A stretch of 42,640 bases of DNA, from positions 1 through 42,640 of IMG/VR virus record IMGVR_UViG_2886212900_000002, one strand, 5' to 3'. Source of the stretch: a virus. The notes beneath the pieces are model-generated. The model had not been told where the DNA came from and did no database searches. It saw only the letters and a list, made by a program, of their open reading frames with translations. How positions within the stretch are numbered: the first letter of the stretch is position 1; every line of letters starts with the position of its first letter. Shown in pieces: positions 1-42,640 of this stretch. The translations under genes were made by a program, and so were the position numbers.

Positions 1-78
1 ATTGAACCAGCTACCCGATCCGTACGTAATCACATTCTTGTACCCGTGACTAATCAGATACCGAAGGAATACGTTAAC
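1..78. repeat. Terminal direct repeat, copy A. It is identical to 42563..42640 and marks the overlap of a circularly closed molecule.
   Basis: Base-by-base comparison: attgaaccagctacccgatccgtacgtaatcacattcttgtacccgtgactaatcagataccgaaggaatacgttaac occurs at both window ends. The repeat lies inside a coding frame that stays open across the junction. Confidence 0.9.
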
Positions 79-399
79 TTGGCTGGTCGTGGAATATGGT
101 AAGTCGGATGCTTCAACATCGATTGCAAGTACCGTGGACTTATCTAAGCCCATCTTCTTCACCCATGATAGAAAGTATTGAGCTTCAGCTGTTCCCCGAC
201 CATGGAAGAAGTGGTAAACCCCAACGGTATCAAACACCTTGAATCCATTAGCAATCTGATTGCCAGCCTTGGGACTGAGATAACCAGTTCCTTCTGTTAG
301 CTTGACCATAATCCCATCAGCGCCCCAACCTTTGAGTTGTTTCATGTAAGCCAGGGAATCAGATTGGTATGATGACAGGTCAACAATCTTTTTAGTCAT
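1..399 (-). CDS. Endolysin, N-terminal GH25 muramidase domain. The gene is split by linearisation and continues at 42562..42137.
   Basis: Manual translation of the minus strand from ATG at 399 gives MTKKIVDLSSYQSDSLAYMKQLKGWGADGIMVKLTEGTGYLSPKAGNQIANGFKVFDTVGVYHFFHG...LRYLISHGYKNVITYGSGSWFN, a typical GH25 phage lysin N-terminus. The start overlaps the holin stop (ATGACTAA). The frame runs in phase into ORF 42137..42595. Confidence 0.85.
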   Translation of the reverse strand, partial: MTKKIVDLSSYQSDSLAYMKQLKGWGADGIMVKLTEGTGYLSPKAGNQIANGFKVFDTVGVYHFFHGRGTAEAQYFLSWVKKMGLDKSTVLAIDVEASDLPYSTTSQVNVFLRYLISHGYKNVITYGSGSWFN

Positions 400-820
400 T
401 GTCGTCAGTCCCTTCTGATGGGGTAATGACCTCCGTTGGTGCCGGGGTAACTACTGGGGCATGATTATCCCCACCGGCTGCCTTGTACGTTTGGTAAGCC
501 TTCTCAACCAATCCTGAGATAGTTTGAACATCTAAATCAAAGCCATTGGCCGTTAATTGAGCGTTGACGAAGCGGATTGCTTCCTTCTTACGATCAGACT
601 TAGATAAGCCAGCCATGACTGCCATTTCTGGCACAATCGTATTCGCCAAGTTTAATCCCAATTCTAATCCTTGCTTGACGTGGATATTCTTTTCAGTCTG
701 TACCTTGTGAGTTAATAGTGGTTTTACCAACTTGTACACAGCGGGAATTAACACCATTAAGAAGGCGACTACACCCGCATTATTAAGCCAATTGAACACA
801 TCTGTAATTTCTTTGAACAT
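392..820 (-). CDS. Holin (LL-H-like, single N-terminal TM segment)
   Basis: 142 aa with an N-terminal hydrophobic helix (GVVAFLMVLIPAVYKLV) and a long hydrophilic tail. It sits immediately upstream of, and is translationally coupled to, the lysin. RBS GGAGG lies upstream. Confidence 0.7.
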   Translation of the reverse strand: MFKEITDVFNWLNNAGVVAFLMVLIPAVYKLVKPLLTHKVQTEKNIHVKQGLELGLNLANTIVPEMAVMAGLSKSDRKKEAIRFVNAQLTANGFDLDVQTISGLVEKAYQTYKAAGGDNHAPVVTPAPTEVITPSEGTDDND

Positions 821-876
821 AATATTCCTCCAATTTTGCGTAAATTAAAAGCACTGACTAACTGGCTGAGTAGAAG

Positions 877-1044
877 CTAGTTAGTGGTGCTTGTGGTCGT
901 TGCTTGAGTTGTTGGCACTACATATGTTTTGCCAGTGATCTGCTTGTATTGATCGGAATTAATGAATCCGTTTTCGACATACCATTCAATATTTGGATCC
1001 AAGTAACCGAGTCCGTAGAAAAATGAAATTGTATCAAAGTCCAC
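877..1044 (-). CDS. XkdX-like small protein (55 aa, below the ORF-track cutoff)
   Basis: GTG start 7 nt after AGGAGG. Translation is VDFDTISFFYGLGYLDPNIEWYVENGFINSDQYKQITGKTYVVPTTQATTTSTTN. The W..V..G.I....Y..ITG pattern and the position just before the holin are typical of XkdX-family proteins. Confidence 0.5.
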   Translation of the reverse strand: MDFDTISFFYGLGYLDPNIEWYVENGFINSDQYKQITGKTYVVPTTQATTTSTTN

Positions 1045-1056
1045 TATGATTACCTC

Positions 1057-1503
1057 CTAATTAGTTGCATCTGCATCGGTGCTTTTAGCAGCCACTTGTA
1101 ATTGCGCCAGTTGGCCGCCAATTTTTGCCATTGCCTTATTAGCTTCGTCAACCGTTACTTTTAGCTGTGCTTGGGAACCACCAATTTTAGCGGCCGCCTG
1201 AGCGGTCTGGTCTAGGAGCTTTTTGTACTGAATATTTTGGTCACTGATGGTGTCAACCTGTTTAAGCACCTGGGTGTGCGGGTCATAAGTTACTTCGGCG
1301 TCTGGATCATCCACACACAACATTTGTGGCTTGCCGTCAGAGCCTATGATTTGTTTGCCATTATTATCTAGGGCCGGCGTTTGTTTCATCTTGACCATCT
1401 TCCAGCCGATATACTCGTCCGCCCCATAAGGCACCGGATCTAAGGCATATACGGCATAGCCAGCCGGCTTATCATCCGGTGCGATTGCGTAAATTGTTTT
1501 CAT
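1057..1503 (-). CDS. Hypothetical protein of the tail-fibre/lysis junction, with an internally duplicated AKIGG..AQL coiled segment
   Basis: 148-aa ORF, co-oriented and tightly packed between the receptor-binding protein and the XkdX-like ORF. Confidence 0.5.
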   Translation of the reverse strand: MKTIYAIAPDDKPAGYAVYALDPVPYGADEYIGWKMVKMKQTPALDNNGKQIIGSDGKPQMLCVDDPDAEVTYDPHTQVLKQVDTISDQNIQYKKLLDQTAQAAAKIGGSQAQLKVTVDEANKAMAKIGGQLAQLQVAAKSTDADATN

Positions 1504-1536
1504 GCTTGATAATCTCCTTTGCTTTTTTGATTAAAC

Positions 1537-4173
1537 TTACAAAGCCTTCTTAAGGAGGCGGGAGCCGATAGTGGAGTCCACGTAAGACGACGAGCCGTCG
1601 CCGTACCAGAACCAAAGACCGGAGTAGCCAGCGCCCCAATTCCAGCTGCCACCAGTGTAGACCACATGGTTACCACTGCTAGTAACATAGCTATCGTCAT
1701 GATAGTAAGTGTTGTATCGGTCGTTGTTAGCGGAAGTAGGAGCCTCCACACTTGGATGATCTTTATCAAATCCAAGACCGGTAATGTTTGAACCTATTGG
1801 TTGTAATGAATAATTGAGCTTGTAATAGGGACTTGCGAACATGTCTGACGCATACTTGGTTGCATCATCACACGAGTATAGAGACAAGTTATTAATGTTT
1901 AAGCCGTCTGTCCACATTGCCAAGTTGCCATAGAGATTTTCAATCCCGCGGTAAGTCATTGATCCATAGCCATTACTATGGTTAACGTTGCCGGATGATC
2001 CCTTAATACCGTCAGCGGCGCCAGCGACTTCTGCTCCAGACAGTACGTCATCAGCAACCCCCTTCATAATTGACTGGGAATCTAGCGTGGCAAATTCTAT
2101 TGTAAACAGAGTTTGTAGCGCGTCTAGTGTGTGCACATCCCACAAGTGATAACCCTTCTTACCATCTGTGTTATTAGCAACCGCTGAACTTCTTAGCTGA
2201 ACAATGGTTTGGCTAGTCGTTGGCGTAGCTCCAGTTTTTGACTGTAATTTGCCTGAAATAATCGACCCTTCGTATCGGGAAACATCGACATAGTCTAGCT
2301 CTTTCTTATTGTCAAAATCATAGAAACAGTTTGGGAGATACCAGTCATCGCCTTGCTTAACCAGCGAAACTTGCCAAGTGCTTAATGGTTTATTTTGGGT
2401 TTTACGGATGTAGAATTTTGGTAAGCGAACAAACGCGTTGCCATACGAATCGGTGACGGTTTTGTCCATCAATCCCCATGGACCACGAGTATCAAAGTCG
2501 TTTTGAGCGCCATTGATACCAGCTTTTAGGCCCACCGCAGAATCGGTCCGCTGTAAGGCCCCAGATGATGAGCCATCCCAACTAACGCCGTAAATGTTAC
2601 CGTCCACGGTTGGCAACGGGTCACTGACCGTAAAGTAGTCGCTCGACCCAACTGCATTTTCAGCATTAACGCGGAACAAGTAATCGTTTCCAGCTTCAAT
2701 GCCATCAGTAACCGTCCCAGTAAGGCTATCAGGATTTAATGCGACTTTCGTCCAGTCCGTGCCACCTTGCTTTTGATACTCCAGGCTGTATCCGATGATT
2801 TCAGAGCCACCATCACTTTCTGGTGCCGTGACCGTGTAGTCGAAGCCTTTTTTGCTAACATCGTACTCAGCTGTCAGTGACGGGATTCCTGGTGCCTTCG
2901 CTGTTAGACTCCATTTCCATGTGGTTGTAGTACCGTTATAAGTGAAGCTCCACATCGCCCCGTCTGGGCCGATCCCGTAGCCAGTAACTAAGCCGTCAAA
3001 ATCGCAGAAATATTCTCCAATAAGCGAATGGCCAGTTGGATTATTTTTAGCGTCAATGTCAACTAAGAGCTTGCCGGTATCTTTGGTGCCGATAATTGAT
3101 TTCAGTTTGGTATCCACGTCTTCCCCACTAGCAATCACAAACTTAGCGGAGCCATCGTCACCAGTTAATTTGTGTTTTTGCCAGTTAGAAGTATCAGTAG
3201 TATGGACAACTTTGCTATCGTCAGCTTTGGTTGCAAGCTGTTGCTGTGTTGCATAATTACTTAGGTCCACTTGCGTGCCATCTTTACCGGCTGGTCCTTG
3301 AGGCCCCTGTGGACCGGTTGCTCCATCTTTTCCATCCTTACCGGCTGGTCCTTGAATCTGTCCACAATCCTTCCACGCGTTATTCGTCCAGATATACAGT
3401 TCTTCGGCAACTAAGTAACCATCGCCTTCACTAGCCGTTGCTGGAAGCTGGTAAGTAGTGTCAGCCTTACCTTTAATCTCTAGTCCTTGTCCGGTATCAC
3501 CTTTCGGGCCTTGAATACCTTGGTCACCTTTGTCACCTTTATCACCCTTCGGCCCTTGAGGTCCAGTATCACCAGTTGCACCCGTATCCCCTTTCGGCCC
3601 TTGAATTCCTTGTGGGCCCTGAATTCCTTGTGGCCCTTGCAATGTGGCGACTTTGTTAGTTAAGTCAGTCTTAAGCTGATCAAATTCCTGTTGGAAAGTA
3701 TCAAGACTCATAACCGGAATAACATCTCCAGAATCACTCATAACATTTTCGGTAATCGTGAATCCTTGTGGGTCATCGCTTGGGAAGATGGCGTTGTACG
3801 TAGTCGTAGCAGTAGTCGTTGAGGTGGTTGAACCGTCATCGGTTAAGCCCTCTTGACTACCAGGTGTTACTAGGCTGGACAAGGTCACCCAAACTTCAAT
3901 GGTGTAATCATCGGGTACCAGGGCATTCATGACCTCAGCGTCAACTGGCATGGTAATCAATCCGGCTAATGGCTGCTTAATCGTAGCCATATCAATCGAC
4001 TTAGTGAATACATAACCGGTGTCATTAGCAACCTTTACATCAATGTCCGTTGCATTAGTTAAGTCGAATGCTGAACCGTCTTGGGTAATCGCCAAATTGA
4101 ACGATGCTGTGGTATCGAGGTATTTTACCTCATTGTTACCATCGGTAAAGTACAGTTCTTTACTCACTTGCAC
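1537..4173 (-). CDS. Tail fibre / receptor-binding protein with a BppU-like N-terminus, collagen-like Gly-X-Y tracts, an FN3 domain and a C-terminal putative receptor-binding domain
   Basis: 878 aa. GPQGIQGPQGIQGPKGDTGATGDTGPQGPKGDKGDKGDQGIQGPKGDTG and GPAGKDGKDGATGPQGPQGPAGKDG tracts. FN3-like segment ...SEIIGYSLEYQKQGGTDWTKV...YLFRVNAENAVGSSDY. Located distal in the tail module. Confidence 0.75.
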   Translation of the reverse strand: MQVSKELYFTDGNNEVKYLDTTASFNLAITQDGSAFDLTNATDIDVKVANDTGYVFTKSIDMATIKQPLAGLITMPVDAEVMNALVPDDYTIEVWVTLSSLVTPGSQEGLTDDGSTTSTTTATTTYNAIFPSDDPQGFTITENVMSDSGDVIPVMSLDTFQQEFDQLKTDLTNKVATLQGPQGIQGPQGIQGPKGDTGATGDTGPQGPKGDKGDKGDQGIQGPKGDTGQGLEIKGKADTTYQLPATASEGDGYLVAEELYIWTNNAWKDCGQIQGPAGKDGKDGATGPQGPQGPAGKDGTQVDLSNYATQQQLATKADDSKVVHTTDTSNWQKHKLTGDDGSAKFVIASGEDVDTKLKSIIGTKDTGKLLVDIDAKNNPTGHSLIGEYFCDFDGLVTGYGIGPDGAMWSFTYNGTTTTWKWSLTAKAPGIPSLTAEYDVSKKGFDYTVTAPESDGGSEIIGYSLEYQKQGGTDWTKVALNPDSLTGTVTDGIEAGNDYLFRVNAENAVGSSDYFTVSDPLPTVDGNIYGVSWDGSSSGALQRTDSAVGLKAGINGAQNDFDTRGPWGLMDKTVTDSYGNAFVRLPKFYIRKTQNKPLSTWQVSLVKQGDDWYLPNCFYDFDNKKELDYVDVSRYEGSIISGKLQSKTGATPTTSQTIVQLRSSAVANNTDGKKGYHLWDVHTLDALQTLFTIEFATLDSQSIMKGVADDVLSGAEVAGAADGIKGSSGNVNHSNGYGSMTYRGIENLYGNLAMWTDGLNINNLSLYSCDDATKYASDMFASPYYKLNYSLQPIGSNITGLGFDKDHPSVEAPTSANNDRYNTYYHDDSYVTSSGNHVVYTGGSWNWGAGYSGLWFWYGDGSSSYVDSTIGSRLLKKAL
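3277..3636 (-). repeat. Two in-frame collagen-like (Gly-X-Y)n coding repeat blocks (3277..3354 and 3484..3636)
   Basis: Counted from the protein: residues 180-230 and 274-299 of the 878-aa ORF are uninterrupted G-X-Y triplets. Confidence 0.85.
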
Positions 4174-4399
4174 CGCCTCCTAGGGCATTCGTGGATTCAG
4201 TTTTTAACCGGGTTAGTACCAATCGCTTAAACCCAGCCCACATATCTTCCTTGGTTGACCCAGAGAAGGCTGTAGAAGCTTCATCAGCCGTTGCATCGAA
4301 GTTACCGTAGGCTTGGTGATTGGTACCACTAAAAACGACCGTGTAGACAACGTGAGTGGTGTTATCTGAGTTCTGCTTGACATCTAAACTAGTAATCAT
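4160..4399 (-). CDS. Hypothetical small tail-associated protein
   Basis: 79-aa ORF overlapping both neighbours by a few nt (translational coupling) within the tail-fibre block. Confidence 0.5.
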   Translation of the reverse strand: MITSLDVKQNSDNTTHVVYTVVFSGTNHQAYGNFDATADEASTAFSGSTKEDMWAGFKRLVLTRLKTESTNALGGGASE

Positions 4400-5406
4400 T
4401 GAGCATTCTTCCTTTCTAATTGAGTGATCCGGTAGCTGAGTTCATCTATCCGCTGATTGGACTTCTTTAAGGCTGCCAATAAGATGGAAATGGTATTGGA
4501 CTCGTTTAAGAAGTAATTCCCATTCTCATCAGTGCTAATCATATCGTTGGCAATACTTGCAGTTTTATCTCCAACCTCATTAACGTCATCAATAATCGGG
4601 CCAATATGCTGGGAGTCAGCGGAGTTATCGGAATCCTTGTACTTCCATTTTTTAACATCGGTGTTCATAACAGCAGATAAGGCTTCATCTGGTGAATAAT
4701 CTGTCACATCTCGTTTAGCAGATAAGGCTGACTTCAACTTTGTACCGTTGGAATAAACATCAGCGGCATGGATATCTGTTACACTTCCACCTCCACCTTG
4801 CTTTTCAAGGTATAAGGCACCACTATCATCACACGCTATGGTGTGCCCTTTAATTGATAATCCTTTGCTATTAATTCCGTTTGAAACGTCTAGGGTGATA
4901 ACTCCAGTGTTACCTTCGTTAAGCGTAATCATGCCACCGTAGATATCCGTTGTATACCCATCAATTATGTTACTGGCTTCAAAGCCAGAATTACTCATCG
5001 TGAATTTATCTATCCCTGAATCAATGGTAATCGTGCCACCATTGATGGTACTTCCAGATATGTTGACGCCATTAATATTCCCGGCTTGAACGTTACCTAA
5101 ATTGGCTGATAAGGCTGACAGATATTCAACCGCAAGACTAGTTACGTCCCACTTCTTAAGTGTCCAGCTACCACCAGAATAAAAGTACATTGATGTAGCA
5201 GAATTTCCGCTCATAACCACCCACATATCGCCGTCATTATGCTCTTTACCATCATCAAATGGTGTGCTAGTTGATTCGGTAATCGTGCCATCAAGGGACG
5301 TCTTGAGGTCTTTAATCTTTTCAGCTAAATCACCAGCACTCGTTGAAGCGTCTTGGGCTAACTTGGTGGCTTCATTAATGTCGACTGAACCCGTTGCAAT
5401 AATCAT
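4396..5406 (-). CDS. Tail fibre/spike protein with a C-terminal S74-type intramolecular chaperone (auto-processing) domain
   Basis: The C-terminus ...SALSAKRDVTDYSPDEALSAVMNTDVKKWKYKD...HIGPIIDDVN...ILLAALKKSNQRIDELSYRITQLE matches the peptidase_S74 chaperone pattern. Confidence 0.6.
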   Translation of the reverse strand: MIIATGSVDINEATKLAQDASTSAGDLAEKIKDLKTSLDGTITESTSTPFDDGKEHNDGDMWVVMSGNSATSMYFYSGGSWTLKKWDVTSLAVEYLSALSANLGNVQAGNINGVNISGSTINGGTITIDSGIDKFTMSNSGFEASNIIDGYTTDIYGGMITLNEGNTGVITLDVSNGINSKGLSIKGHTIACDDSGALYLEKQGGGGSVTDIHAADVYSNGTKLKSALSAKRDVTDYSPDEALSAVMNTDVKKWKYKDSDNSADSQHIGPIIDDVNEVGDKTASIANDMISTDENGNYFLNESNTISILLAALKKSNQRIDELSYRITQLERKNAQ

Positions 5407-7997
5407 CCTTCGACCACCTCCTGATAAGTCTCACCATCATCAATATTGAAAGCAGAATCGTCATCACTGGCACTATCTGAGTCGTCAGTATCATCAGGGA
5501 TTACCACAGGTTGTTCTACCTCGGTATTTTCTCCCTCATCTTCAGCTGGGTAAGTGACGGCTAAGTCCTTGCTATCATCACGGATACCAATTGGAATTGA
5601 CCATAATCCCGAGTGACTAATCATGACAGTATGAGCCGTGTCTCGGTACTCGCTGACGTTGAATCCAATTATTAGCTGGTCATGAGCCAAGTCCGGGTAT
5701 ACCCCTTCTGGTTCAAAATGGCCACCGTACTCAATCGGTACAGACAGCTGAATATCCTGTGAAGGCTCAATCTGGTAATTAAAAATGACTGACTGAGTAA
5801 TGAGATTGATACACATTACTAGTCGGTCATCCTTGTTGTTGACGTCCCCAGCGGTAAAGAAGGCGTATGGGTAGGCAATTGAATTGGCTTGTATCGTGTT
5901 GTATTTTCCATTGTTAGTCACACCCGAGGGTACCGGATTCCAGCCAAAGTCTTGTAACTTGAAGCGAATAGTTGGGAAATAATGGCCAGCTTTCAAATCC
6001 GAGATATTACATACTTCTACCGTGCCATCCATCTGACTCCCGATCCATAGACCATTTGTTAAATCAACGTTAGGTCTCACGTAAGTTTCCATTTCACACC
6101 ATTTTGTTACCGTGCTGGAACCACTATTGATTACAGCGTGTGGGGTATATGGGAAGGTTGCTAACCATTTCTTGCCACCACTTAAATCCTTAATCTGGGA
6201 GTATATGAGGTTGTTGGCTTCATCGTAACCAAAGGAAGAGCCATGTTGACCACCTTGTACAATCATGGAATTAATTAGCTTGCCATCAGCACTCCAATGT
6301 AGGTATTGGCAATCGCTTAGATTGGACTGATTTTGCTTTCCTTTGTACGCATAGCTGGCAAGTACCTCACCATTACTCATTTTGTAAGAAAATTGCAATG
6401 CCCCAACGTGATTATTGCCGAACTCATCAGGGTTACCATCAGTGGTCTCCCACAGCTTGTTGAAGGTACCGTCAGCGTTGGCTCCAGTATCTATCCACAT
6501 TTCTGACTCATCTTTAACGAAGGCGTCATCAATTGATACGATTAAGCTACCAACAAATGGTGGGGTAATGGTGACTTCATAGCCATCCTTAGCATGTTCT
6601 GCTTCCCAAGTCAGATTATGAGTCCCGTCTTGTTGGACGTATTCCCAGTTGAAAGCCGCCACTGATAAGAATGACGTAACATTCTCACCTTCAATGAATA
6701 ACCGGGCAATTACTCGCTTACTGGTATCAGTATTCGTCCATGATTGTCCCAGTGGGGTAATTAAGCTGATACTAGCAGCATTTTGGTTCTTTTTGGCATC
6801 TTCAAACAGTTTTTTTACGTGGTCATTCCACCGCTGTTCCATGTTTTTAATGAAATTGGGAGTCACGACTGTAACCGTTGAGAACTCCCCGATGACTACC
6901 TTATTTTGAGTTGGGTCACTCTCGGAAGTCGTCCGTTGAATAACTCTGGCTTGCAAAGTTAATACTGGACTCATTGTCAGGTCGATTACCTTAATGGTAT
7001 CACCTAGTTGAGCGTCAAAATCACTGGTTACATCAACGGAATAATTGACCCGCGGGTGGTTATACAGTCTGAGTGTCTTCAATCCCAGCGATAGTAAGGC
7101 ATCGGGTTCACTGACCGTAGAACTGGTAATACTACCTTCTAACCAAGTGTTGGCATCGTTGTTGTACAGGCTATTAGCGGCGGCATCAGTGACAAAATTA
7201 CGACCACCGTTGCCCTTAGCTGTACTGATTGAGGCACCACCGGAACCATAGACATACAGTTTGGTAATCAAGGTAGTATCGACCGTTTCCCGCTTAATAC
7301 TAAGCATGTTGTCACCATAAGTGATACGTCTACCAGTATTCTGTCCCCGTTGGTCGGATAATTCCAGAATGGTATCTGTCACAATCCCAGAACTATCTAA
7401 TTTTACGTACCCATCAGCCTCACAATCGTAGGTCGTCAGGATTGTCTGCAATAATGTTTGGGAAGATGATTCCCCATCAATGGAAAAATCTGAAAGTAGC
7501 CCAGAAGTTGCATTATCCACCAGGGTTATCCCTGTACCCGCAATAATCCAGTTCATAGCCGCTGGCAAGGTACACTCTTTAATCTCTTTTTTTGTGGGAA
7601 TTGTCTTCCCTAGTCGCCAGATTAAGAGGTTAATAGCATCGGCTGAAATAAGGTTAGTTCCAGAGGTGTTATCCATGGTCTCATCAACTGTATATATCCG
7701 GTAAACCCGCCAGCGATCATTCGCTTGGTCGTAAGCCGCTAAGTGATTTCCTACTCTCAGATATTGGGCCGCTGGACTATCTGCTACCATGGTGAGACCG
7801 GTAAAGGTATCATTCCAACTCTTAGAATTAGCGTTGGGGTCAGAGGTGTTGGCTAGACTGGCTTCAGTAATGCTATCGTTTGAGCTATTATCATCGGCAA
7901 GTTGTTGCTGAATAGTCTCACCCCAGAATATATTCGTATCAGTCGCCGTATCTAAGGTGGCGACTCGTTTGAGGTTCTTATCAAGAATGACGTACAC
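5403..7997 (-). CDS. Tail-associated lysin / baseplate hub protein (Tal-like minor structural protein)
   Basis: 864 aa directly downstream of Dit, the canonical position. N-terminal MYVILDKNLKRVATLD...WGETI pattern of the siphovirus Tal / prophage tail endopeptidase N-terminal region. Acidic C-terminal tail. Confidence 0.65.
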   Translation of the reverse strand: MYVILDKNLKRVATLDTATDTNIFWGETIQQQLADDNSSNDSITEASLANTSDPNANSKSWNDTFTGLTMVADSPAAQYLRVGNHLAAYDQANDRWRVYRIYTVDETMDNTSGTNLISADAINLLIWRLGKTIPTKKEIKECTLPAAMNWIIAGTGITLVDNATSGLLSDFSIDGESSSQTLLQTILTTYDCEADGYVKLDSSGIVTDTILELSDQRGQNTGRRITYGDNMLSIKRETVDTTLITKLYVYGSGGASISTAKGNGGRNFVTDAAANSLYNNDANTWLEGSITSSTVSEPDALLSLGLKTLRLYNHPRVNYSVDVTSDFDAQLGDTIKVIDLTMSPVLTLQARVIQRTTSESDPTQNKVVIGEFSTVTVVTPNFIKNMEQRWNDHVKKLFEDAKKNQNAASISLITPLGQSWTNTDTSKRVIARLFIEGENVTSFLSVAAFNWEYVQQDGTHNLTWEAEHAKDGYEVTITPPFVGSLIVSIDDAFVKDESEMWIDTGANADGTFNKLWETTDGNPDEFGNNHVGALQFSYKMSNGEVLASYAYKGKQNQSNLSDCQYLHWSADGKLINSMIVQGGQHGSSFGYDEANNLIYSQIKDLSGGKKWLATFPYTPHAVINSGSSTVTKWCEMETYVRPNVDLTNGLWIGSQMDGTVEVCNISDLKAGHYFPTIRFKLQDFGWNPVPSGVTNNGKYNTIQANSIAYPYAFFTAGDVNNKDDRLVMCINLITQSVIFNYQIEPSQDIQLSVPIEYGGHFEPEGVYPDLAHDQLIIGFNVSEYRDTAHTVMISHSGLWSIPIGIRDDSKDLAVTYPAEDEGENTEVEQPVVIPDDTDDSDSASDDDSAFNIDDGETYQEVVEG

Positions 7998-32753: not shown

Positions 32754-32762
32754 AACTTCCTC

Positions 32763-35810: not shown

Positions 35811-36488
35811 ATGAATGTTGGCGAAAGAATGAAAAACATTCGCAAACAAAAAGGCATAAGTGCCGACGTGCTTGCAGAAGCTATTGATGTTTCTAGGTCT
35901 ACGATATTCAGATATGAAAACGGTGATATAGAAAAACTGCCAATCGAAGTAGTTGCACGTGTTGCAAACGCTTTGCATGTTTCCCTTGCTGAATTAATGG
36001 GACTTTCTAACGGTATTTTACCTGAAAAGATAAGTAACATAGTGTCTGAACTAACAGCAGATAGGCAACAAAACGTTTATAATTATGCTGATAAGCAGCT
36101 AAAAGAGCAAAAAAACAATGTTGTTCATATACCTAGGACTCAAATTAGGCTTCTAGGAGCTGTATCTGCTGGTACTGGTGAGGAACTGCAAGATGATACA
36201 ACCGAAGTTGATTACACAGGTATAATTCCTGATTATGATTATGCTTTACAAGTTAACGGTGATTCAATGGAACCGTTATTTACTGATCAGCAAATAATTT
36301 TTGTTAAATATGCAGAAGAAGCATTTAACGGACAGATAGTTATTGCTTACGTAGATGGTAAGGCTTATGTAAAGAAATACCATCAAACTGAATACAGTTG
36401 CCAACTAGTTAGTTTAAACGACAAATATGATCCGATAGATGTTAGCTATGACAAAAGCTTCAAGATAAAAGGAGTTGTAGTTTTGTAA
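35811..36488 (+). CDS. CI/LexA-like repressor (XRE HTH plus S24 autopeptidase)
   Basis: MNVGERMKNIRKQKGISADVLAEAIDVSRSTIFRYENG... and C-terminal ...VNGDSMEPLF...GQIVIAYVDGKAYVKKY (Ser/Lys dyad context). Confidence 0.85.
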   Translation: MNVGERMKNIRKQKGISADVLAEAIDVSRSTIFRYENGDIEKLPIEVVARVANALHVSLAELMGLSNGILPEKISNIVSELTADRQQNVYNYADKQLKEQKNNVVHIPRTQIRLLGAVSAGTGEELQDDTTEVDYTGIIPDYDYALQVNGDSMEPLFTDQQIIFVKYAEEAFNGQIVIAYVDGKAYVKKYHQTEYSCQLVSLNDKYDPIDVSYDKSFKIKGVVVL

Positions 36489-36507: not shown

Positions 36508-36614
36508 CTCTTAGCATTCAAAAAGAACATATGTTTGATTAACCGGGTGGTTGGTCATGGGTCCGAGTCCTGTGTAATCAGTTGATTCACAACTTGAATA
36601 TGGAGGTTGCTATT

Positions 36615-36929
36615 ATGACAACGTTTGAATTAGAAGAATACTTGGAAGCGAACAGTCAGATTGTCGACAATCTTCGGGATAAATATGCTGCGTTCCTAAA
36701 CGAACAAAACGCAGACCGCCCCACCAATAAAAAGTGGAGTAGCCTGCGCATTAAAAATGAGACCAGTAGTGCTGTCATCAAATTCATTAGCAATATCCAA
36801 GCCAAATTGAGTTCAGCCATGAAGCCCCGTCAGCGAAAATCTTATGATGGCTGGGTTGATTATATGGAACGCAATGAAATCATCGATAGCTTGGAAGAGT
36901 CCCTAATGGATCTGGAATTAGAAGACTGA
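36615..36929 (+). CDS. Hypothetical protein in the lysogeny-side operon (104 aa)
   Basis: The ATG at 36615 lies 8 nt after GGAGG (MTTFELEEYLEANSQ...). The track ORF starts at 36582. It occupies the slot that usually holds superinfection-exclusion or defence cargo. Confidence 0.5.
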   Translation: MTTFELEEYLEANSQIVDNLRDKYAAFLNEQNADRPTNKKWSSLRIKNETSSAVIKFISNIQAKLSSAMKPRQRKSYDGWVDYMERNEIIDSLEESLMDLELED

Positions 36930-37004: not shown

Positions 37005-38384
37005 TTAAGCAATCCAGCCATCACTTGAGGTAGTTGTGTTAGCAGAACCTAGCTTCAACGTAGCAGTGTAGTATGCGTTCAAAGTATCACCGTATACAGC
37101 ACGTGGGTTGTCTTTTGCAAGGTCAGTAGGAACAGTTAACTTGAATTCGTAATGGTATGCAGTACCATCGATAGTATAGTAAGTCTTGGTTCCTGTTAAA
37201 GTAGCTTTTTTCAAGGAATTTTCAACCTTAGTCAAATCAACGTTTGCAGTCTTGTCACCATCGAGAGTTGTGGCATCAAAACCAGATACCGTAACATCCT
37301 TAGTGGACAAAGTAGCATTCTTAGCAAGACCATTAACTACAGTAGCAGTAGTTGTATCAACTTTATCAACCTTCAAAGCAACCTTTGAAGTTGCAGTAGC
37401 AGTCACATCAACATATACAGTAGTACCATACTGTGCTGAAACAGTATAGCGAGAAGATACGGCATAGTTAGCTGGCTTTGCAGCCTTGATGTAATCAACA
37501 AGTGATTGGTTAGCTGTGTTCACAGCCTTAGTACCAACTGGATCCCCAGCCTTTGTGGTTGAAGTAGTTGCGCCATCAACCCAAGTTGCAGTACCAACAT
37601 TAGCCTTAGTAGAAGCATCACGGTAAACAACATTGACACTGTTATCACTGGTTGCAGCGTTAGCAGCAACAGTTAATGACAAACCACCTAAGTCTTGCTT
37701 AGTGTTATCGGTGATAGAAGCATCGAAGCCCTTACCAGCATAGATCCAGCCAGAGATTGAAGAATCCTTGCTATCAGTTACGTGATAGTACAAAGAACCT
37801 TCCTTAGTCTTAGTTGCAGCCTTGTCAACCGTGAATGGATCAGTCTTGGAAGCACCGTAAAGGCTAACCTTCTTGGCATGGATATCGGTATTCTTAGGAG
37901 CAGTCCAAAGAGTGTTCTTTGAAACATCCTTCAAGTAGTAACCGGTAGTACGTGCTGGAGTAGTAGCAGCAGTCGTAGTTTCAGCAGCTTTGATCCCGGC
38001 AGTAAATGTGCCAGCGGTCTTACCTGCGTAAACGTAACCACGGTACTTCTTGTCCATAGTAACGATCTTGTAGTATACGGAACCACGGTTAGTAGTCTTA
38101 GTACCGTATGCGTAGAAAGTGTCGCTAGACTTCTTAGAAGCAGCTAACTTAGCAACTGTCTTCTTAGAAGCAACGACCTTGGCACCCTTAACAGTACCTG
38201 GCTTTGAGTAAATGGCATTAGTACCAGTTACAGTAACATTTTGACTCTTGTCTGCAAGAGCGGTGTAAGCACCGGCAGTTGCATAGCTCTTAGCACTTGC
38301 AGTAGTGGTAGTAACAGCTGAAAGACCAGCTAAACCTAACACTGCAGCGCCTACATAAATAGACTTTGCGAATGATGAACGCAT
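37005..38384 (-). CDS. Secreted Thr/Ala-rich protein with repeated SH3b/GW-like modules (cell-surface or extracellular protein)
   Basis: Signal peptide MRSSFAKSIYVGAAVLGLAGLSAVTTTTASA|KS. Repeated ...SVYYKIVTMDKKYRGYVYAGK... and ...SLYYHVTDSKDSSISGWIYAGKG... It has its own promoter (TGTTATAAT at about 38448..38460 on the minus strand) and its own terminator. Confidence 0.65.
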   Translation of the reverse strand: MRSSFAKSIYVGAAVLGLAGLSAVTTTTASAKSYATAGAYTALADKSQNVTVTGTNAIYSKPGTVKGAKVVASKKTVAKLAASKKSSDTFYAYGTKTTNRGSVYYKIVTMDKKYRGYVYAGKTAGTFTAGIKAAETTTAATTPARTTGYYLKDVSKNTLWTAPKNTDIHAKKVSLYGASKTDPFTVDKAATKTKEGSLYYHVTDSKDSSISGWIYAGKGFDASITDNTKQDLGGLSLTVAANAATSDNSVNVVYRDASTKANVGTATWVDGATTSTTKAGDPVGTKAVNTANQSLVDYIKAAKPANYAVSSRYTVSAQYGTTVYVDVTATATSKVALKVDKVDTTTATVVNGLAKNATLSTKDVTVSGFDATTLDGDKTANVDLTKVENSLKKATLTGTKTYYTIDGTAYHYEFKLTVPTDLAKDNPRAVYGDTLNAYYTATLKLGSANTTTSSDGWIA

Positions 38385-38538
38385 AGATGAAAACCTCCTG
38401 TAATTTCTTTATTAGCAAAAAAGTTATGTAAATTATTACAACCATTTCTGCTAATAAGATTATAACATACGACGTCTATTATGCCAAAAGAAAATTTTAA
38501 AAAGTTCACAAAAAATTCACATTTGTAAAAAAGTCCAT

Positions 38539-38569
38539 AAAAAAGCCCTTCAACAAGTCAGCGGAAGGG
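38539..38569 (-). terminator. Minus-strand terminator-like hairpin
   Basis: The minus strand reads CCCTTC-(12 nt)-GAAGGG-C-TTTTTT. Confidence 0.4.
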
Positions 38570-38650
38570 AAGAAATCAAGGATTCATCTATGCAAAAACA
38601 ATTATAACCTATATGTAGTGAAAAAACAATATCAATGAAATATTTGTAAC

Positions 38651-38682
38651 AAAAAAAGGACGCCCTGCTTGAAGGAGCGTCC
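38651..38682 (-). terminator. Minus-strand rho-independent terminator
   Basis: The minus strand reads GGACGCTC...GGGCGTCC followed by TTTTTTT. Confidence 0.6.
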
Positions 38683-38863
38683 AATCTTCAAAGAAGGAAG
38701 AATAAAAACCAACTTTAAAGAAATCACTTTAAGTATAATAGCTTATAATTCCAGTAAAGTCAAACTAATTTTTGCCTTTCTAAGGCTAGTTTTTAAATTG
38801 ACCAGACTAGATTTAATATGTTAATATTCAATTGTTCTTCTATGAGATAGTCTGAACGTGCAT

Positions 38864-38907
38864 AAAATATGGATAGCCTACGACTGGCTATCCATATTTT
38901 ATTTTTT
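38864..38907 (+). terminator. Strong plus-strand rho-independent terminator (15-bp stem)
   Basis: AAAATATGGATAGCC-tacgact-GGCTATCCATATTTT followed by ATTTTTT. Confidence 0.7.
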
Positions 38908-38976
38908 AATTGCTACAATAATTTATAAATGCTATGATGTAAAAGTTCCAATCCTTCGGAACGTCCTCGTCTTTGG

Positions 38977-39027
38977 AAAAGCCACTCAAAGTTACCCTCA
39001 GCACACAACTTCTTTGGTGGCTTTTTT
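38977..39027. terminator. Bidirectional terminator-like hairpin
   Basis: AAAA-GCCACTCAAAG-(20 nt)-CTTTGGTGGC-TTTTTT. Confidence 0.5.
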
Positions 39028-39099
39028 GATTATTTACATTTTTCTCAAAGTGAACTATCATTTTTAGGATAACAAATAAAGTTTCATCCATTCATTTAC

Positions 39100-39140
39100 A
39101 AAAAAGAGGCTTCCAGCATAACACTGGAGACCTCTTTTTT
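39100..39140. terminator. Bidirectional terminator downstream of the BRCT ORF
   Basis: AAAAAA-GAGGCTTCCAG-cataaca-CTGGAGACCTC-TTTTTT. Confidence 0.6.
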
Positions 39141-39299
39141 ATATACCAATTTTTACTTTACATATTCAGCCTTATCCCAAGTAACCACCATTCGCCCTGA
39201 TAAAACAACGATCCGTTATTTTTTCCTTGTGAAAATTGACGGTATGGGATTGGTCTAGGTGAAAATCGCCCGAAAACTTAGGAAAGCCACTTTGTGAAG

Positions 39300-39578
39300 T
39301 TAACCGTCCAAACTCCTAGACCATTGCGCCAATCGTGCCTGACACCAGGCCAAAAACTCACGTTCTGAAATCGTTGGGGTTCCCGTCAATAACTTTTTTG
39401 TGATCGGCTCCTCACCTAAAACCGTCTCAATTAACCCAACCACTAAATAATCTGTCTGTTTCGTAACCCAATTTTGTGGTTTCGCCCCAAAGACTTTCGC
39501 CAAACTAAAAGCTTGATCCCGAGTCATGGTTGTTAAGCGACCGGTAAAAGCAATCTCACAATCTCTTAAATCAAGCAT
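39300..39578 (-). CDS. Stand-alone BRCT-domain protein (92 aa)
   Basis: ...CEIAFTGRLTTMTRDQAFSLAKVFGAKPQNWVTKQTDYLVVG...ITKKLLTGTPTISEREFLAW follows the LigA-type BRCT pattern (vFTG.L...sR.eA..l....Gakv..sVskkTdyLVvG...KA...g..Ii.E.eF). No convincing RBS. Confidence 0.5.
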   Translation of the reverse strand: MLDLRDCEIAFTGRLTTMTRDQAFSLAKVFGAKPQNWVTKQTDYLVVGLIETVLGEEPITKKLLTGTPTISEREFLAWCQARLAQWSRSLDG

Positions 39579-40103
39579 TTTAAATCATCAACTTTCTTGA
39601 TTCTAATGTTGGTTTTGACTTGACGGGTTACGATTTTCCATTCAGTTTAGAGGGAGTGACGTTTTGAGCGCAGAATTGTTCCCTGGAAACAGCTATTTGG
39701 AATAACTGAACCAGAGTACAATTCTACTACTAAAAGTTTCCCCTTAGTTCGTCGGTCGTTAACGCCCGTCGCTTGTCTGTACAATTGCGGTATTGCTACC
39801 ACCACTCATTATAAACCTACGTTTTCGGTTTAACCTACTAAAAAACGCCCTAGTAGGCGTTGGCAATACGTATTTATGTTTGTTCGATCACCAACTAATC
39901 AATGGCACCAAGCTGAAGCTTCGTTTTACCACCCGCGCCGTTAATGGTCGCGCTCACCATTCACCACCCAGCCGTACAGATGACCTTGTTGTGGTATAGC
40001 CAGACTTATTGAAGTCGCACTGGCAAACGTGTCCCCTTAGATTTAGACCCCAGCTTGTCCCCTAGGGCTTTAAAAATCGCACCGGCCATGATATAATAGT
40101 CAG

Positions 40104-40157
40104 TAACTTAGATGACTTCTGTGGCGCTCACCAACTCCAATTGGTGGGTGTTTTTTT
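40104..40157 (+). ncRNA. Candidate small RNA of about 55 nt (promoter to terminator unit)
   Basis: Extended -10 TGATATAAT (hexamer 40092..40097) with TTTAAA at -35 (40069..40074). The terminator stem CTCACCAA-ctccaa-TTGGTGGG (40127..40148) is followed by TG and T7. No ORF. Confidence 0.35.
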
Positions 40158-40220
40158 ATGTTCTATTTGATGTCTAAATCATATCTCAATAGCAAGAATA
40201 AGTAAAGGCACTTTTTACAT

Positions 40221-40436
40221 AGTTCTATAGAACCACGTAATTTATAATTCTATAAATCTATAGTTCTATAAATCTATAGATGTTCATTTCTATAGTTCTA
40301 TAAATCTATAGTTCTATAGAGCTGCTATGTCGGCAATATTCGCTATTTATTAGGTCTATAGAACTATAGATCTATAGTTCTATAGATATTCATTTCTATA
40401 GTTCTATAGATCTGAAGAAAATGTTCTATAGAATTT
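40221..40436. repeat. Centromere-like (parS) / iteron array: about 13 CTATAG plus 3 CTATAA cores, often as TTCTATAGAA palindromes
   Basis: Read directly, e.g. agTTCTATAGAAcc and gtCTATAGaaCTATAGatCTATAGttCTATAGata. Two longer direct repeats ttcatttctatagttctata(a/g)atct at about 40283..40308 and 40389..40414. Immediately upstream of parA and overlapping its promoter (TGCTATAAT at about 40447..40455). Confidence 0.75.
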
Positions 40437-40476
40437 TATTTTTTTATGCTATAATTTTTCCCAAAAGGATGTGTCT

Positions 40477-41292
40477 ATGTTGACCACAACTATTACAACC
40501 GGTAATTTTAAAGGCGGAGTTGGAAAAACAACTAATGCTGTTATGATTGCTTACACCTTATCCAATAGAGGGAAAAAATCCTTAATAGTAGATCTTGATC
40601 CACAAGCTAATGCTACAGACTTGCTGTTTACAACAATGAGCCAAGTGTATGGAACTAAACCTGATTTTAGTGAAACGCTTGAAGTTGCTTTAAAAAAAGG
40701 TAGTTTAGAAAATGCAATTGTTCATGTAAATGATAACTTAGATTTACTTCCTTCGGATGATGATTTACAGAACTATGATAAATTTCTGAGCTCTTCGTTT
40801 CCTGATGACTACACACAAGATCATTATTTCTCTAAACTATTATCAAAAATTTCAAGTAAATATGATTTTGTAATATTGGACGTTCCCCCACAATTAAACA
40901 AATTTACTGATTCCGCTTTGGTTGCAAGTGATTACGTTATTGTTATTTTGCAAACCCAAGAGCGCTCATTGCGAGGGGCAGAAACATACGTTAAGCACTT
41001 ATTGCAAATCAAAGACGATTACTCTCTCGACATTGATTTGTTAGGCGTTTTACCTGTCTTACAACAAAACGGAAATGATTTAGATTTAGACGTTATCGAA
41101 GATGCAACTACAAGCTTCGGTAATGCAAATATGTTTAAACAAAAGGTGCGTCAGATGGCTAGATTAAAACGATTTGATCGCACTGGTATAACAAATAATG
41201 CTAGCCATGACATAAACGACAGAAGGGTTCACCATCTTTATGATTTGGTTGTAGATGAATTATTAGAACGTTTAAAATTGATTAGAGGTTAA
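40477..41292 (+). CDS. parA: ParA-family partition ATPase (deviant Walker A)
   Basis: MLTTTITTGNFKGGVGKTTNAVMIAYTL...LIVDLDPQANATDLL...FVILDVPP. The ATG at 40477 lies 7 nt after AAGGA. The track ORF starts at the GTG at 40471. Confidence 0.85.
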   Translation: MLTTTITTGNFKGGVGKTTNAVMIAYTLSNRGKKSLIVDLDPQANATDLLFTTMSQVYGTKPDFSETLEVALKKGSLENAIVHVNDNLDLLPSDDDLQNYDKFLSSSFPDDYTQDHYFSKLLSKISSKYDFVILDVPPQLNKFTDSALVASDYVIVILQTQERSLRGAETYVKHLLQIKDDYSLDIDLLGVLPVLQQNGNDLDLDVIEDATTSFGNANMFKQKVRQMARLKRFDRTGITNNASHDINDRRVHHLYDLVVDELLERLKLIRG

Positions 41293-41295: not shown

Positions 41296-41652
41296 ATGAC
41301 TGCTAACGATAAAATGGGATTAGGTGCTTTTGGAGAAACTAGAAAGAATAAAACCACACGACCTCAGAAAATTGAGCCACAAAAATTTGAAGAACAACAC
41401 AGAAGCATGCCAAATGACCAAGTACTAATTAAACCAAAACGTAGATTGACAGCAAAAGATACTCCAAAGTCTGTCCAGGCACAATTAGACACTCATATGG
41501 CCATAAAGCAAATAGCTACCATTGAAAATAAGCGAAACTATGAGGTTCTCAACGAAATCGTTGAAAGCTATGTTCAGAATATGCCGAACCAAAGCAAAAA
41601 ATTAGTAATAGATAGTGTTAGAGCTGTTCAACAAAATATGCGAGATTTTTAA
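41296..41652 (+). CDS. Small ParB/ParG-like centromere-binding adaptor (pAD1 RepC / pCF10 PrgO-type position)
   Basis: 118 aa, basic disordered N-terminus and helical C-terminus. Starts 4 nt after the parA stop. Function inferred from context only. Confidence 0.5.
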   Translation: MTANDKMGLGAFGETRKNKTTRPQKIEPQKFEEQHRSMPNDQVLIKPKRRLTAKDTPKSVQAQLDTHMAIKQIATIENKRNYEVLNEIVESYVQNMPNQSKKLVIDSVRAVQQNMRDF

Positions 41653-41654
41653 AT

Positions 41655-41682
41655 ATCTATAGATCTATAATTCTATAGAACG
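41655..41682. repeat. Second, short CTATAG/CTATAA cluster downstream of the par operon
   Basis: atCTATAGatCTATAAttCTATAGaacg directly after the parB-like stop. Confidence 0.7.
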
Positions 41683-41787
41683 AAAATTTTGTAGAACTAC
41701 CAGATTAACGAATATCACTGCGTCCTCAGACGACACGTTCAACTTTTATACGTATACTTGTCCGTTTAAATGAAGCAGAATACACGC

Positions 41788-41826
41788 AAAAAAGCCACCC
41801 ACCTCGTAAGAGATGAGTGGCTTTTT
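41788..41826. terminator. Bidirectional terminator between the par operon and the lysis module
   Basis: AAAAAA-GCCACCCAC...GAGTGGC-TTTTT. Confidence 0.65.
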
Positions 41827-41864
41827 GGTTGCGTCAACTTTAAAGGATTAACTTAATCCTAGCA

Positions 41865-42137
41865 CTATTTATTTTTTAATTCACGTACATCGCCTTCAAC
41901 ATTGTCTAAGCGTTCGTTGATAACTTTGTGCTCGCTTCTGCTAGCGATAAAATCTTGACGCAGCGTATTTTGCGAATCGAACAGACGCTCAATCCGCTGG
42001 CTACTATCCTTCATACTTTGAGCAATTTCTTGCAGCCGATCCGTGAAGGGCTTCATGACAACCATCAAAGCCGCATAGATACCTGCAACTACAGCTAAAG
42101 CCAAGGTGACTAATTCGATCCAACGATCAAAGGTCAT
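41865..42137 (-). CDS. Membrane-anchored coiled-coil protein downstream of the lysin (lysis accessory?)
   Basis: 90 aa with an N-terminal TM helix (LVTLALAVVAGIYAALMVV) followed by a coiled coil. The ATG overlaps the lysin stop (TAATG). Confidence 0.5.
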   Translation of the reverse strand: MTFDRWIELVTLALAVVAGIYAALMVVMKPFTDRLQEIAQSMKDSSQRIERLFDSQNTLRQDFIASRSEHKVINERLDNVEGDVRELKNK

Positions 42138-42640
42138 TACTTACCACCCGACTTTCTAACCAATTTTACGTAGTCCTTATTAGCTGAAATGTAACCAACG
42201 TCAGTCTTAATCCGGTACACCTTACCGTACTTGACGGCCTTACCGTAGATTGTACTGCCCTTGGAGAAGTGAATACGGCGCTTATTAGCCTTGTCTAGAT
42301 CTGGCTTACCATATACATTAACCTCACTGGTAATCACTTCGTACAGGCCGTTATCAGCCCAGTATGAGGCTTTCTTAGGAGTTACCTTGGTAGCCTTACC
42401 TGAAAGCTTACCATCAAAATCACGGCTGCAATCCACCCCATGCCCATTCCAATTATCGGTATTTTGCCAGGCATTGGCGTCGTTTACTCCTGGCCCATAA
42501 TTATTATAGGCTGCTACCCAGATTGCTTTATCAACTAACTGGGAACGATTAATCCGTCCAGAATTGAACCAGCTACCCGATCCGTACGTAATCACATTCT
42601 TGTACCCGTGACTAATCAGATACCGAAGGAATACGTTAAC
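42137..42640 (-). CDS. Endolysin, C-terminal part (end of the GH25 domain plus an SH3b-like cell-wall-binding region). The frame is open to the window end and continues at 399..1 after circularisation.
   Basis: ...GYKNVITYGSGSWFNSGRINRSQLVDKAIWVAAYNNYGPGV...YGKPDL...KGSTIYGKAVKYGKVYRIKTDVGYISANKDYVKL. The 'M' in the ORF track is an internal GTG Val. Confidence 0.85.
   Translation of the reverse strand, partial: VNVFLRYLISHGYKNVITYGSGSWFNSGRINRSQLVDKAIWVAAYNNYGPGVNDANAWQNTDNWNGHGVDCSRDFDGKLSGKATKVTPKKASYWADNGLYEVITSEVNVYGKPDLDKANKRRIHFSKGSTIYGKAVKYGKVYRIKTDVGYISANKDYVKLVRKSGGK
42563..42640. repeat. Terminal direct repeat, copy B (identical to 1..78)
   Basis: See copy A. Confidence 0.9.

Follow-up and report, generated by a model that had tools for sequence, protein, structure and literature searches.

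How the prophage of a temperate phage with no recognizable integrase is handed on is the question raised by the IMG/VR viral record IMGVR_UViG_2886212900_000002, analysed here over its full length of 42,640 nt (the window; G+C 42.5%). Besides a lysogeny switch and genes for head, tail, packaging and lysis, it carries an operon for a ParA-type partition ATPase and a small partner protein. The window is likely to represent, as a complete circle, the genome of a temperate siphovirus that infects Levilactobacillus-type hosts and whose prophage is kept as a low-copy circular plasmid, without integration; in other words, a phage-plasmid. Support for this comes mainly from relatives deposited as plasmids, so that the reading appears well supported for the lineage and, on sequence evidence, reaches the present element by extension. 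A sequence-only reading of the window had proposed that the prophage is an autonomously segregating circle and not an integrated one, and the proposal held in every test run, namely the scan for recombinases, the class of ParA, the plasmid relatives and the comparison with the integrase slot of phage Sha1.

A circular genome without integration genes

Positions 1–78 of the window are an exact copy of 42563–42640, which gives a circular unit length of 42,562 bp. When the ends are joined, a single minus-strand open reading frame (ORF) of 274 aa is restored, running from 399 to 1 and then from 42562 to 42137, with a Glyco_hydro_25 domain (E 4e-27) and a wall-binding-type DUF5776 domain (Pfam). 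The identical 78-nt ends, the unit length and the 274-codon GH25 lysin had all been described from the letters alone, and the exact overlap and the restored frame bear this out. As the junction falls within the lysin gene, the cut was made by the assembler in a circular molecule and there is no physical terminal repeat. The presumed cos region near the small terminase gene (TerS) was read through by the assembly, which fits circular or concatemeric intracellular DNA.

Pfam was searched with 241 six-frame segments of at least 50 aa from the circularised sequence (E ≤ 0.01); 40 evident genes were scanned directly and the other 201 stop-to-stop segments as two sets, for which the family lists (22 and 1 families) were shown in full. 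Integrase, resolvase, large serine recombinase, transposase and telomere-resolvase families were absent from all 241 segments, and tblastn with the Sha1 integrase gave no match to the window. The previous claim that no ORF of 60 aa or more looks like a tyrosine or serine recombinase, a transposase or a protelomerase thus withstood a profile search of all six frames, and the lack of integration machinery that defines a phage-plasmid extends across the whole segment set. The single match labelled 'integration' was a weak one to a PHROG transposase (2e-4), on the helix-turn-helix (HTH) of the replication initiator.

In Sha1 (NC_019489), an integrating temperate siphovirus, the integrase gene lies in the interval from the lysis genes to the repressor, and in the window the partition (par) cassette takes this same position. 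It had been stated that the slot downstream of the repressor leads to ParA. This is correct in that the par cassette occupies the Sha1 integrase slot, but ParA does not directly follow the repressor: the interval holds a 115-aa gene, a 459-aa minus-strand gene, the gene for a 92-aa BRCT-like protein and some 0.9 kb of non-coding sequence.

A partition cassette resembling type Ib systems

ParA carries the motif NFKGGVGKTT, with KGGVGKT at residues 14–20, and matches AAA_31 (2.9e-41) and phrog_164, 'ParA-like partition protein' (1.9e-60). Among NCBIfam models PrgP of pCF10 fits it best (3.9e-57); among solved structures its closest relative is delta of pSM19035 (PDB 2OZE; 7.6e-32), aligned over the full length (residues 8–268). 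Judged by these profiles, ParA is a bona fide plasmid-type partition ATPase. The equivalog cut-offs for PrgP and PrgO (NF041283 and NF041284) are not reached by ParA (193.8 vs 400 bits) or by the 118-aa product of the downstream gene (22.3 vs 100), and the two proteins appear to be related to PrgP/PrgO without being equivalogs. The N-terminal half of the 118-aa protein is basic and probably disordered, the C-terminal half helical; the protein matches a PHROG of unknown function (1e-21) and has 11 homologues among 5.8 billion proteins.

The window contains 31 matches to the repeat TCTATAR, where 10.2 ± 3.5 would be expected; none of 100 shuffles reached 31, and 28 of the 31 matches fall in two clusters. 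The cluster at 40224–40432, immediately upstream of parA, accounts for 23 matches, which correspond to about 17 sites spaced in an 8-bp register and facing both ways; the other, at 41656–41679, closely follows the 118-aa gene and accounts for five (three sites). Profiles, the 4-nt spacing of the two genes and the shuffle test therefore agree with the original description of a KGGVGKTT ParA with a coupled small gene and repeat arrays.

Type Ib systems have a ParA of about 210–300 aa with KGGxGK[ST] and no N-terminal DNA-binding domain, as found here, and short-repeat arrays adjoining the operon, here with about 17 units upstream and 3 downstream. By analogy, then, the combination of a short ParA with a small partner and with repeats bracketing the operon would amount to the layout of a type Ib system. 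Delta/omega of pSM19035, RepB/RepC of pAD1 and PrgP/PrgO of pCF10 likewise consist of a small HTH-less ParA, a small downstream partner and repeats flanking the operon, although the window differs from these plasmids in having its own repeat sequence and no adjoining RepA_N-type initiator gene. In pAD1 the 8-bp iterons are arranged as a large array ahead of repB, with three copies behind repC.

Relatives deposited as plasmids

Ten plasmid records of 38.6–64.7 kb match 34–58% of window 25–42.6 kb at 90–95% identity, sharing with it the lysogeny, replication and partition region. Eight are from L. brevis and one each from L. pentosus and L. suantsaii, and they are deposited as separate circular plasmids in about ten closed genomes. 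The full annotations of pLBN-2 (NZ_CP050543), pCBA3634-02 (L. suantsaii, NZ_CP059605, 42,530 bp) and plas4 (L. brevis SC013, NZ_CP113254, 43,813 bp) list phage genes, ParA and IS30, IS200 or TnpB insertions, and no integrase. The insertions, which lie within phage modules, are IS30 and TnpB in pCBA3634-02, IS200/TnpB (IS605-TnpB) among the tail genes of pLBN-2 and IS30 in plas4; they argue for long-term vertical maintenance, and the picture suggests that some members of the lineage survive as plasmids after losing phage function. A scan of species-representative genomes with the 115-aa gene added stand-alone contigs of 41.9, 39.2 and 40.8 kb from L. muriae, L. yiduensis and Levilactobacillus sp., which carry the same early genes and are not flanked by chromosomal DNA. 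Lysogens in which the lineage is a separate replicon are thus represented by about ten circular plasmid records and three stand-alone contigs, and the present element by its circular assembly only. The most that any single record covers is about 55% of the window, which makes the window a new mosaic of a lineage that is already in the databases.

These relatives bear on the possibility that the phage integrates by means of a host or trans-acting recombinase, the circle being its excised or replicating form. CTXphi uses XerCD for integration, and a circular contig alone cannot tell the two states apart. However, neither the circular replicons of the closed genomes nor the stand-alone contigs have chromosomal flanks, and the accumulation of insertion sequences (IS) in relatives fits long residence as a plasmid. 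With thirteen independent non-integrated relatives, and with a complete partition operon and its centromere arrays filling the integrase slot, we consider integration of this kind very unlikely.

Another explanation for the par cassette is that it is an unused passenger from a co-resident plasmid, the phage persisting by lytic growth, in a carrier state or by pseudolysogeny. Window 39.1–42.0 kb is 94–95% identical to hundreds of ordinary Lactiplantibacillus and Levilactobacillus plasmids, which points to recent exchange with plasmids. Yet the cassette, or another ParA/DUF5388 pair in the same place (pCBA3634-02), is present in every relative with either of the two structural modules described below, and an SOS-type CI repressor implies stable lysogeny in a phage that has no integrase. 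A passenger role is, in our judgement, highly improbable, and maintenance as a phage-plasmid is the reading that we carry forward.

A conserved non-coding element as a candidate origin

Between the BRCT-like gene and the upstream repeat array lies an element of about 540 nt, in which nothing is annotated in any relative. It is present in 432–444 plasmid records from Lactiplantibacillus, Levilactobacillus, Pediococcus, Loigolactobacillus and other genera, and in every case inspected it stands just upstream of an operon for ParA and a small protein, even where the ParA type or the repeat is another. Among phages it was found only in Lb (NC_047983). In pWCFS103, positions 1204–1791 are 95% identical to window 39586–40173 and precede that plasmid's own repeat array and ParA/DUF5388 pair.

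From an alignment of eight copies of the element representing three sequence variants, RNAalifold predicted 148 pairs, 28 of them compensatory, against 10.9 ± 2.4 in shuffles (0/500) and 0–5 with the partners slid. The best-supported helix, 39773–39782/39974–39983, has six consecutive compensated pairs (TCTGTAC/GTACAGA to GACAATC/GATTGTC). A plus-strand hairpin followed by a T-run (40124–40157) is terminator-like and keeps its structure, but not its sequence, across the variants; a strong promoter-like site (40069–40097) lies ahead of it. The minus strand folds at lower energy, and the conserved promoter and terminator are on the plus strand. A gathering-threshold scan of the whole window with Rfam gave only a tRNA and a tRNA-like sequence, and an E-value scan of 38380–40480 gave chance-level matches only; ROOL, GOLLD, a group II intron or another curated family were ruled out by these scans. 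The element was also rejected as coding, as substitutions in its open frame of 74–78 codons are spread 21/23/20 over the codon positions.

If the phage initiator is silenced by CI, a phage-plasmid needs an origin that works in that state. The element is carried by plasmids pWCFS103, pKB290-4 and NZ_CP143883 (20 kb, from L. plantarum), for none of which the gene tables of PLSDB annotate a Rep initiator. The extrachromosomal parABS prophages of cluster A mycobacteriophages have RNA-based origins adjoining par, most of them without a Rep protein (Wetzel et al. 2020, PMC7157519), and p256 and pTC7 have been reported to be without a replication-initiation gene (PMC8346141). From the host plasmids with no annotated Rep, the silenced initiator and the mycobacteriophage and p256-type precedents, we tentatively propose, by analogy, that element 39615–40157 could be the plasmid-mode origin, a proposal in which our confidence is below even. 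It is possible, though less likely than not, that the element is a Rep-independent RNA-based origin common to >430 Lactobacillaceae plasmids and was captured with the par operon in place of the integrase. It is best treated as a candidate, either for a Rep-independent origin or for a regulatory RNA. Its likeness to class B RNA-primed theta replicons is circumstantial, consisting of covariation, non-coding character, promoter- and terminator-like sites and host plasmids with no annotated Rep. Plasmid maintenance functions are accordingly represented in the window by the ParA operon and its flanking arrays, with the replicon as a candidate only.

We propose that in the lysogen CI would repress the leftward Cro/Ant early operon, including the phage initiator and loader. 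The 118-aa protein would bind the TCTATAR arrays on both sides of parAB and, together with ParA, segregate the copies, as a type Ib system like those of pSM19035 (delta/omega), pAD1 (RepB/RepC) and pCF10 (PrgP/PrgO). Replication in the plasmid mode might start from the non-coding element (39.6–40.16 kb) beside the centromere, with no plasmid-encoded Rep; no other step is as uncertain as this one. The lytic genes would then be turned on once RecA had stimulated the S24 repressor to cleave itself, and cos-type packaging with HNH, TerS and the large terminase (TerL) and lysis with the holin and GH25 lysin would follow.

A split large terminase and the question of virion production

The window contains a full set of virion, packaging and lysis genes, as expected of a phage-plasmid: TerS, TerL in two ORFs, portal, protease, capsid, connectors, tail tube, tail assembly chaperone (TAC), tape measure protein (TMP), Dit, Tal, holin and lysin. 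The combination of a P27-family TerS with an HNH endonuclease suggests cos packaging with an HK97-like set. The Pfam scan of the window found neither a sheath nor a baseplate-J family, which argues for siphoviral morphology. The sequence-only reading had every module of a functional temperate phage present. Switch, replication, packaging, head, tail and lysis genes were indeed found, but the split in TerL had been overlooked.

Two frames of the window are needed to align Sha1 TerL (632 aa): residues 1–131 fall at 22524–22132 and residues 121–622 at 22162–20651. What divides the gene into two ORFs is an 8-nt insertion, AGGTTGAA, that Sha1 and pCBA3634-02 do not have and that lies directly before the Walker A codons GQGKT (junction ~22129–22140). 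The insertion creates a TGA and an overlapping TTG; the second ORF thus begins MNGQGKT and GQGKT is kept. An identical 8-nt insertion is present at about 1027–1057 of plas4, the annotation of which has no coding sequence for TerL.

One explanation for these data is that the window represents a plasmid-borne defective prophage, inherited as a plasmid only and forming no infectious particles with its broken large terminase. The site of the insertion just before Walker A would fit this, as would the recurrence of the split in plas4 and the decay of relatives through the IS30, IS200 and TnpB insertions described above. All other genes are intact, however, and so, apart from the insertion, are both TerL ORFs, which are open across 1.9 kb; comparison of the window with plas4 gives an omega of 0.089 in the N-terminal piece (synonymous divergence, dS, 0.145) and of 0.076 in the C-terminal piece (dS 0.52). 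Low omega and intact frames argue against a decaying pseudogene, and the comparison points to continued purifying selection on both pieces. As dS is lower for the N-terminal than for the C-terminal piece, the insertion may have spread by recombination after the C-terminal pieces diverged. With the TTG start the second ORF retains GQGKT, and a −1 shift at the junction would rejoin the two frames; no canonical slippery site is evident there. PHROGs includes families of ~210-aa N-terminal 'terminase large subunit' pieces, from which it appears that split terminases may be tolerated. A −1 frameshifted TerL or a two-piece terminase is therefore possible, and we regard a defective prophage as rather unlikely. 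The main uncertainty is whether the present copy still makes virions, the evidence for infectious particles being indirect, in that the relative Lb was deposited and classified as a phage.

Several points weigh against a functional phage-plasmid and should be set beside the evidence above. A circular assembly can equally arise from replicating or excised phage DNA, and the molecule itself is known from its circular assembly alone. With TerL interrupted, virion production is not assured. The match of the 118-aa protein to PrgO is weak (1.1e-4, its 22.3 bits standing against a cut-off of 100), its AF2 model is poor (pLDDT 66, two helices) and a profile search of the PDB found no relative of it among solved structures. 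For the element, the asymmetry of G.U and A.C pairs in the shared helices favours neither strand (4 vs 12; 7 vs 9), in one plasmid a Rep gene accompanies it, and the PLSDB gene tables from which Rep-gene annotation was taken are incomplete. Finally, at the end of an S. oryzae contig (NZ_BBJM01000004.1, 73.8 kb) a lysogeny-cargo fragment adjoins cellular-type genes.

The S. oryzae fragment comprises the 115-aa gene, an ABM monooxygenase and a GW surface protein, and its neighbours are LysR, Abi, RpiR and agmatine deiminase genes. It was rejected as a complete integrated relative, being a fragment of the cargo region only.

Lysogeny switch, cargo and other features

Feature coordinates are collected in Table 1. 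The CI gene, on the plus strand, faces the minus-strand genes for a Cro-like HTH protein and a Rha/KilAC antirepressor. A CI/Cro switch with an S24 autopeptidase repressor had been recognized earlier, and Pfam identified HTH_3 and Peptidase_S24 in the repressor as well as the Cro-like HTH and the antirepressor. The neighbouring 66-aa early gene (34462–34662) matches a Tad2-like (Thoeris anti-defence 2) domain (E 1.2e-7). The 459-aa protein has a signal peptide, is Thr/Ala-rich and gives a weak GW/SH3 match; its gene has its own strong promoter-like site (38487–38459), and it is probably lysogenic-conversion cargo. The 92-aa BRCT-like protein resembles the C-terminal BRCT of LigA/DnaQ-type proteins; its gene accompanies the non-coding element and par operon in many plasmids, and other small genes stand there instead in Lb and pLBN-2.

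Each of the two paralogous D12 methyltransferase genes contains an in-frame 9-nt repeat, CAACAACTG (QQL), in 8 copies at 24121–24192 and 12.9 copies at 25163–25278, which may be a length-variable linker. Next to the tRNA gene, a 58-nt tRNA-like sequence (26699–26756, minus strand) scores 46 bits with the tRNA model and is missing the whole anticodon arm; it is followed by an 11/22-nt tandem repeat at 26810–26867.

Table 1. Features of the window, with their positions, strand and the basis of assignment
Feature	Position	Strand	Basis or remark
Terminal overlap	1–78	.	identical to 42563–42640; marks circular assembly
GH25 endolysin, 5' part	1–399	-	start codon at 399; continues at 42562
Holin	392–820	-	weak Phage_holin_6_1 match; phage Lb holin at 90% nt identity
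Siphovirus tail module incl. small ORFs	1057–15822	-	Pfam; gene names from homologous plasmids
Fibre proteins	1537–4173 and 4396–5406	-	tail module
Tal/tail spike	5403–7997	-	tail module
Dit	8014–10008	-	tail module
Tape measure, 1504 aa	9998–14512	-	tail module
Tail chaperone	14731–15102	-	tail module
Tail tube	15208–15822	-	tail module
Head-tail connector, head closure, HK97-gp10-like and DUF806 genes	15826–17286	-	Pfam, plasmid annotation
HK97-type major capsid	17309–18550	-	Pfam
ClpP-type prohead protease	18550–19275	-	Pfam
Portal	19247–20428	-	Pfam
DUF1056	20431–20637	-	Pfam
TerL in two overlapping ORFs: 504 aa, 20618–22132; 138 aa, 22129–22545	20618–22545	-	Pfam, Sha1 alignment
P27-family small terminase (TerS)	22560–23015	-	Pfam
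HNH endonuclease	23293–23820	-	Pfam
Two tandem D12-class N6-adenine DNA methyltransferases	23851–24750 and 24890–25849	-	Pfam
tRNA(CAT)	26615–26688	-	Rfam scan
RinA-family late-gene activator	26886–27305	-	profile match
Recombination/replication early module, whole	28569–33248	-	Pfam, PHROGs
DnaC/IstB-like loader	28569–29336	-	early module
HTH_36 replication initiator	29338–30036	-	phrog_270, 7e-45
HNHc_6	30209–30925	-	early module
SSB	30940–31371	-	early module
HNH	31364–32020	-	early module
ERF	32091–32753	-	early module
Gp157	32763–33248	-	early module
Tad2-like 66-aa gene	34462–34662	-	Pfam
Rha/KilAC antirepressor	34675–35388	-	Pfam
Cro-like HTH	35395–35643	-	Pfam
CI-type repressor	35811–36488	+	HTH_3 + Peptidase_S24 (2.6e-25)
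115-aa gene, phrog_7823	36582–36929	+	adjoins repressor in all relatives
459-aa secreted surface protein	37005–38384	-	S-layer protein in annotation of relatives
Stand-alone BRCT-like protein, 92 aa	39300–39578	-	Pfam; with par module in many plasmids
Structured non-coding element, candidate plasmid-mode origin	39615–40157	.	conservation, covariation
Second long-range helix of element	39802–39811/39896–39905	.	predicted
Upstream centromere-like array, ~17 8-bp TCTATAR units, direct and inverted	40222–40445	.	repeat count
ParA, 273 aa, deviant Walker A ATPase, no N-terminal HTH, delta/PrgP-like	40471–41292	+	profiles
118-aa gene, putative centromere-binding adaptor	41296–41652	+	4 nt after parA; weak PrgO match
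Downstream array, three TCTATAR units	41651–41700	.	repeat count
GH25 endolysin, 3' part	42137–42562	-	Glyco_hydro_25 + DUF5776

Significance

As a category phage-plasmids are not new, nor is this lineage absent from the databases, where it appears both as a classified phage and under many 'plasmid' entries. They are well documented in enterobacteria, Bacillus, Clostridium and mycobacteria; to our knowledge they are hardly documented in lactic acid bacteria. Literature searches found no paper that describes the lineage as a phage-plasmid, published phage-plasmid catalogues lying outside their coverage, and two surveys of prophages and genomes in L. brevis were confined to chromosomes (PMC6805780, PMC6533708). 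The lineage is widespread in food, beer-spoilage and gut strains of Levilactobacillus and Lactiplantibacillus, where it is filed as 'plasmids', and plasmid curing or SOS stress could release phage from such strains. It trades its partition/origin module with ordinary plasmids at 94–98% identity, and whole structural modules, the baseplate-bearing Lb type and the siphovirus type, are swapped on a constant lysogeny/plasmid backbone. Through this exchange and swapping of modules the lineage is a route by which genes pass from phages to plasmids and back in bacteria of industrial importance. If the proposal for the non-coding element is true, the element would be the first origin of its kind to be defined in any phage-plasmid of Firmicutes and would identify the replicon of hundreds of lactobacillus plasmids that have no recognisable Rep gene; as an origin, it could also offer a compact vector backbone.

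Comparison with known systems

The best match in phage collections is Lb (Heilongjiangvirus Lb, 43,416 bp, circular; host L. brevis ATCC 367), which shares 57% of window 25–42.6 kb at 94.6% identity and the par region at 98%. Lb and the Lb-like plasmid pLBN-2 have in common with the window the early/lysogeny region, the non-coding element, parA, the 118-aa gene, the lysin and the holin, and Lb has an annotated 'ParA-like partition protein' and no annotated integrase. Its structural module differs, with a baseplate wedge/J-type set, a PBSX-type terminase and another capsid, so that window 1–25 kb is shared at the lysis genes only. The guideline of the International Committee on Taxonomy of Viruses for a genus is about 70% nucleotide identity over the full length; with matches to 57% of its right-hand 17.6 kb and to 4% of the remaining 25 kb on the left, or about a quarter of the genome, the window falls short of Heilongjiangvirus.

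The siphovirus head, tail and packaging genes of the window are instead shared with pCBA3634-02 and plas4 (88–90%), as is the early region (92–94%). Both are circular plasmids without an integrase, each covers about 49–54% of the window, and both differ from it in the immunity region and several early genes; pCBA3634-02 has, in addition, an intact TerL frame and a different ParA/DUF5388 pair. Sha1 is 78–80% identical in nucleotides from TerS to capsid and 90–93% identical in amino acids in TerL, and has a similar Rha/Ant and S24 repressor. Unlike the window, it has a tyrosine integrase and no ParA. A match of another kind is OP650937.1, 'Hujiaoplasma phage zrk29-2', assigned to a deep-sea Tenericutes host, with 81–85% nucleotide identity at window 20588–23751 and 26442–30856, where the terminase/HNH region and some early genes lie; such a match is unexpected for that host, and this may be a misattributed or contaminant record.

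Among plasmids, pWCFS103 and pKB290-4 share the non-coding element but are ordinary conjugative or mobilizable plasmids without phage genes, and the p256-type 'new type of replicon' of L. plantarum, which is reported to have no rep gene, is likened to it by description only. P1, N15 and SSU5 have the same lifestyle, that of a temperate phage kept extrachromosomally with plasmid partition (Pfeifer et al. 2021, PMC7969092), although they have no sequence relationship to the window and their RepA replicons (P1 and SSU5) or protelomerase (the linear N15) are not present in it. Cluster A mycobacteriophages also differ in having no sequence relationship, a type Ia/chromosomal-like ParA/ParB-parS and hosts of another phylum, but they are likewise temperate siphoviruses in which a par cassette and a linked origin stand in place of the integrase.

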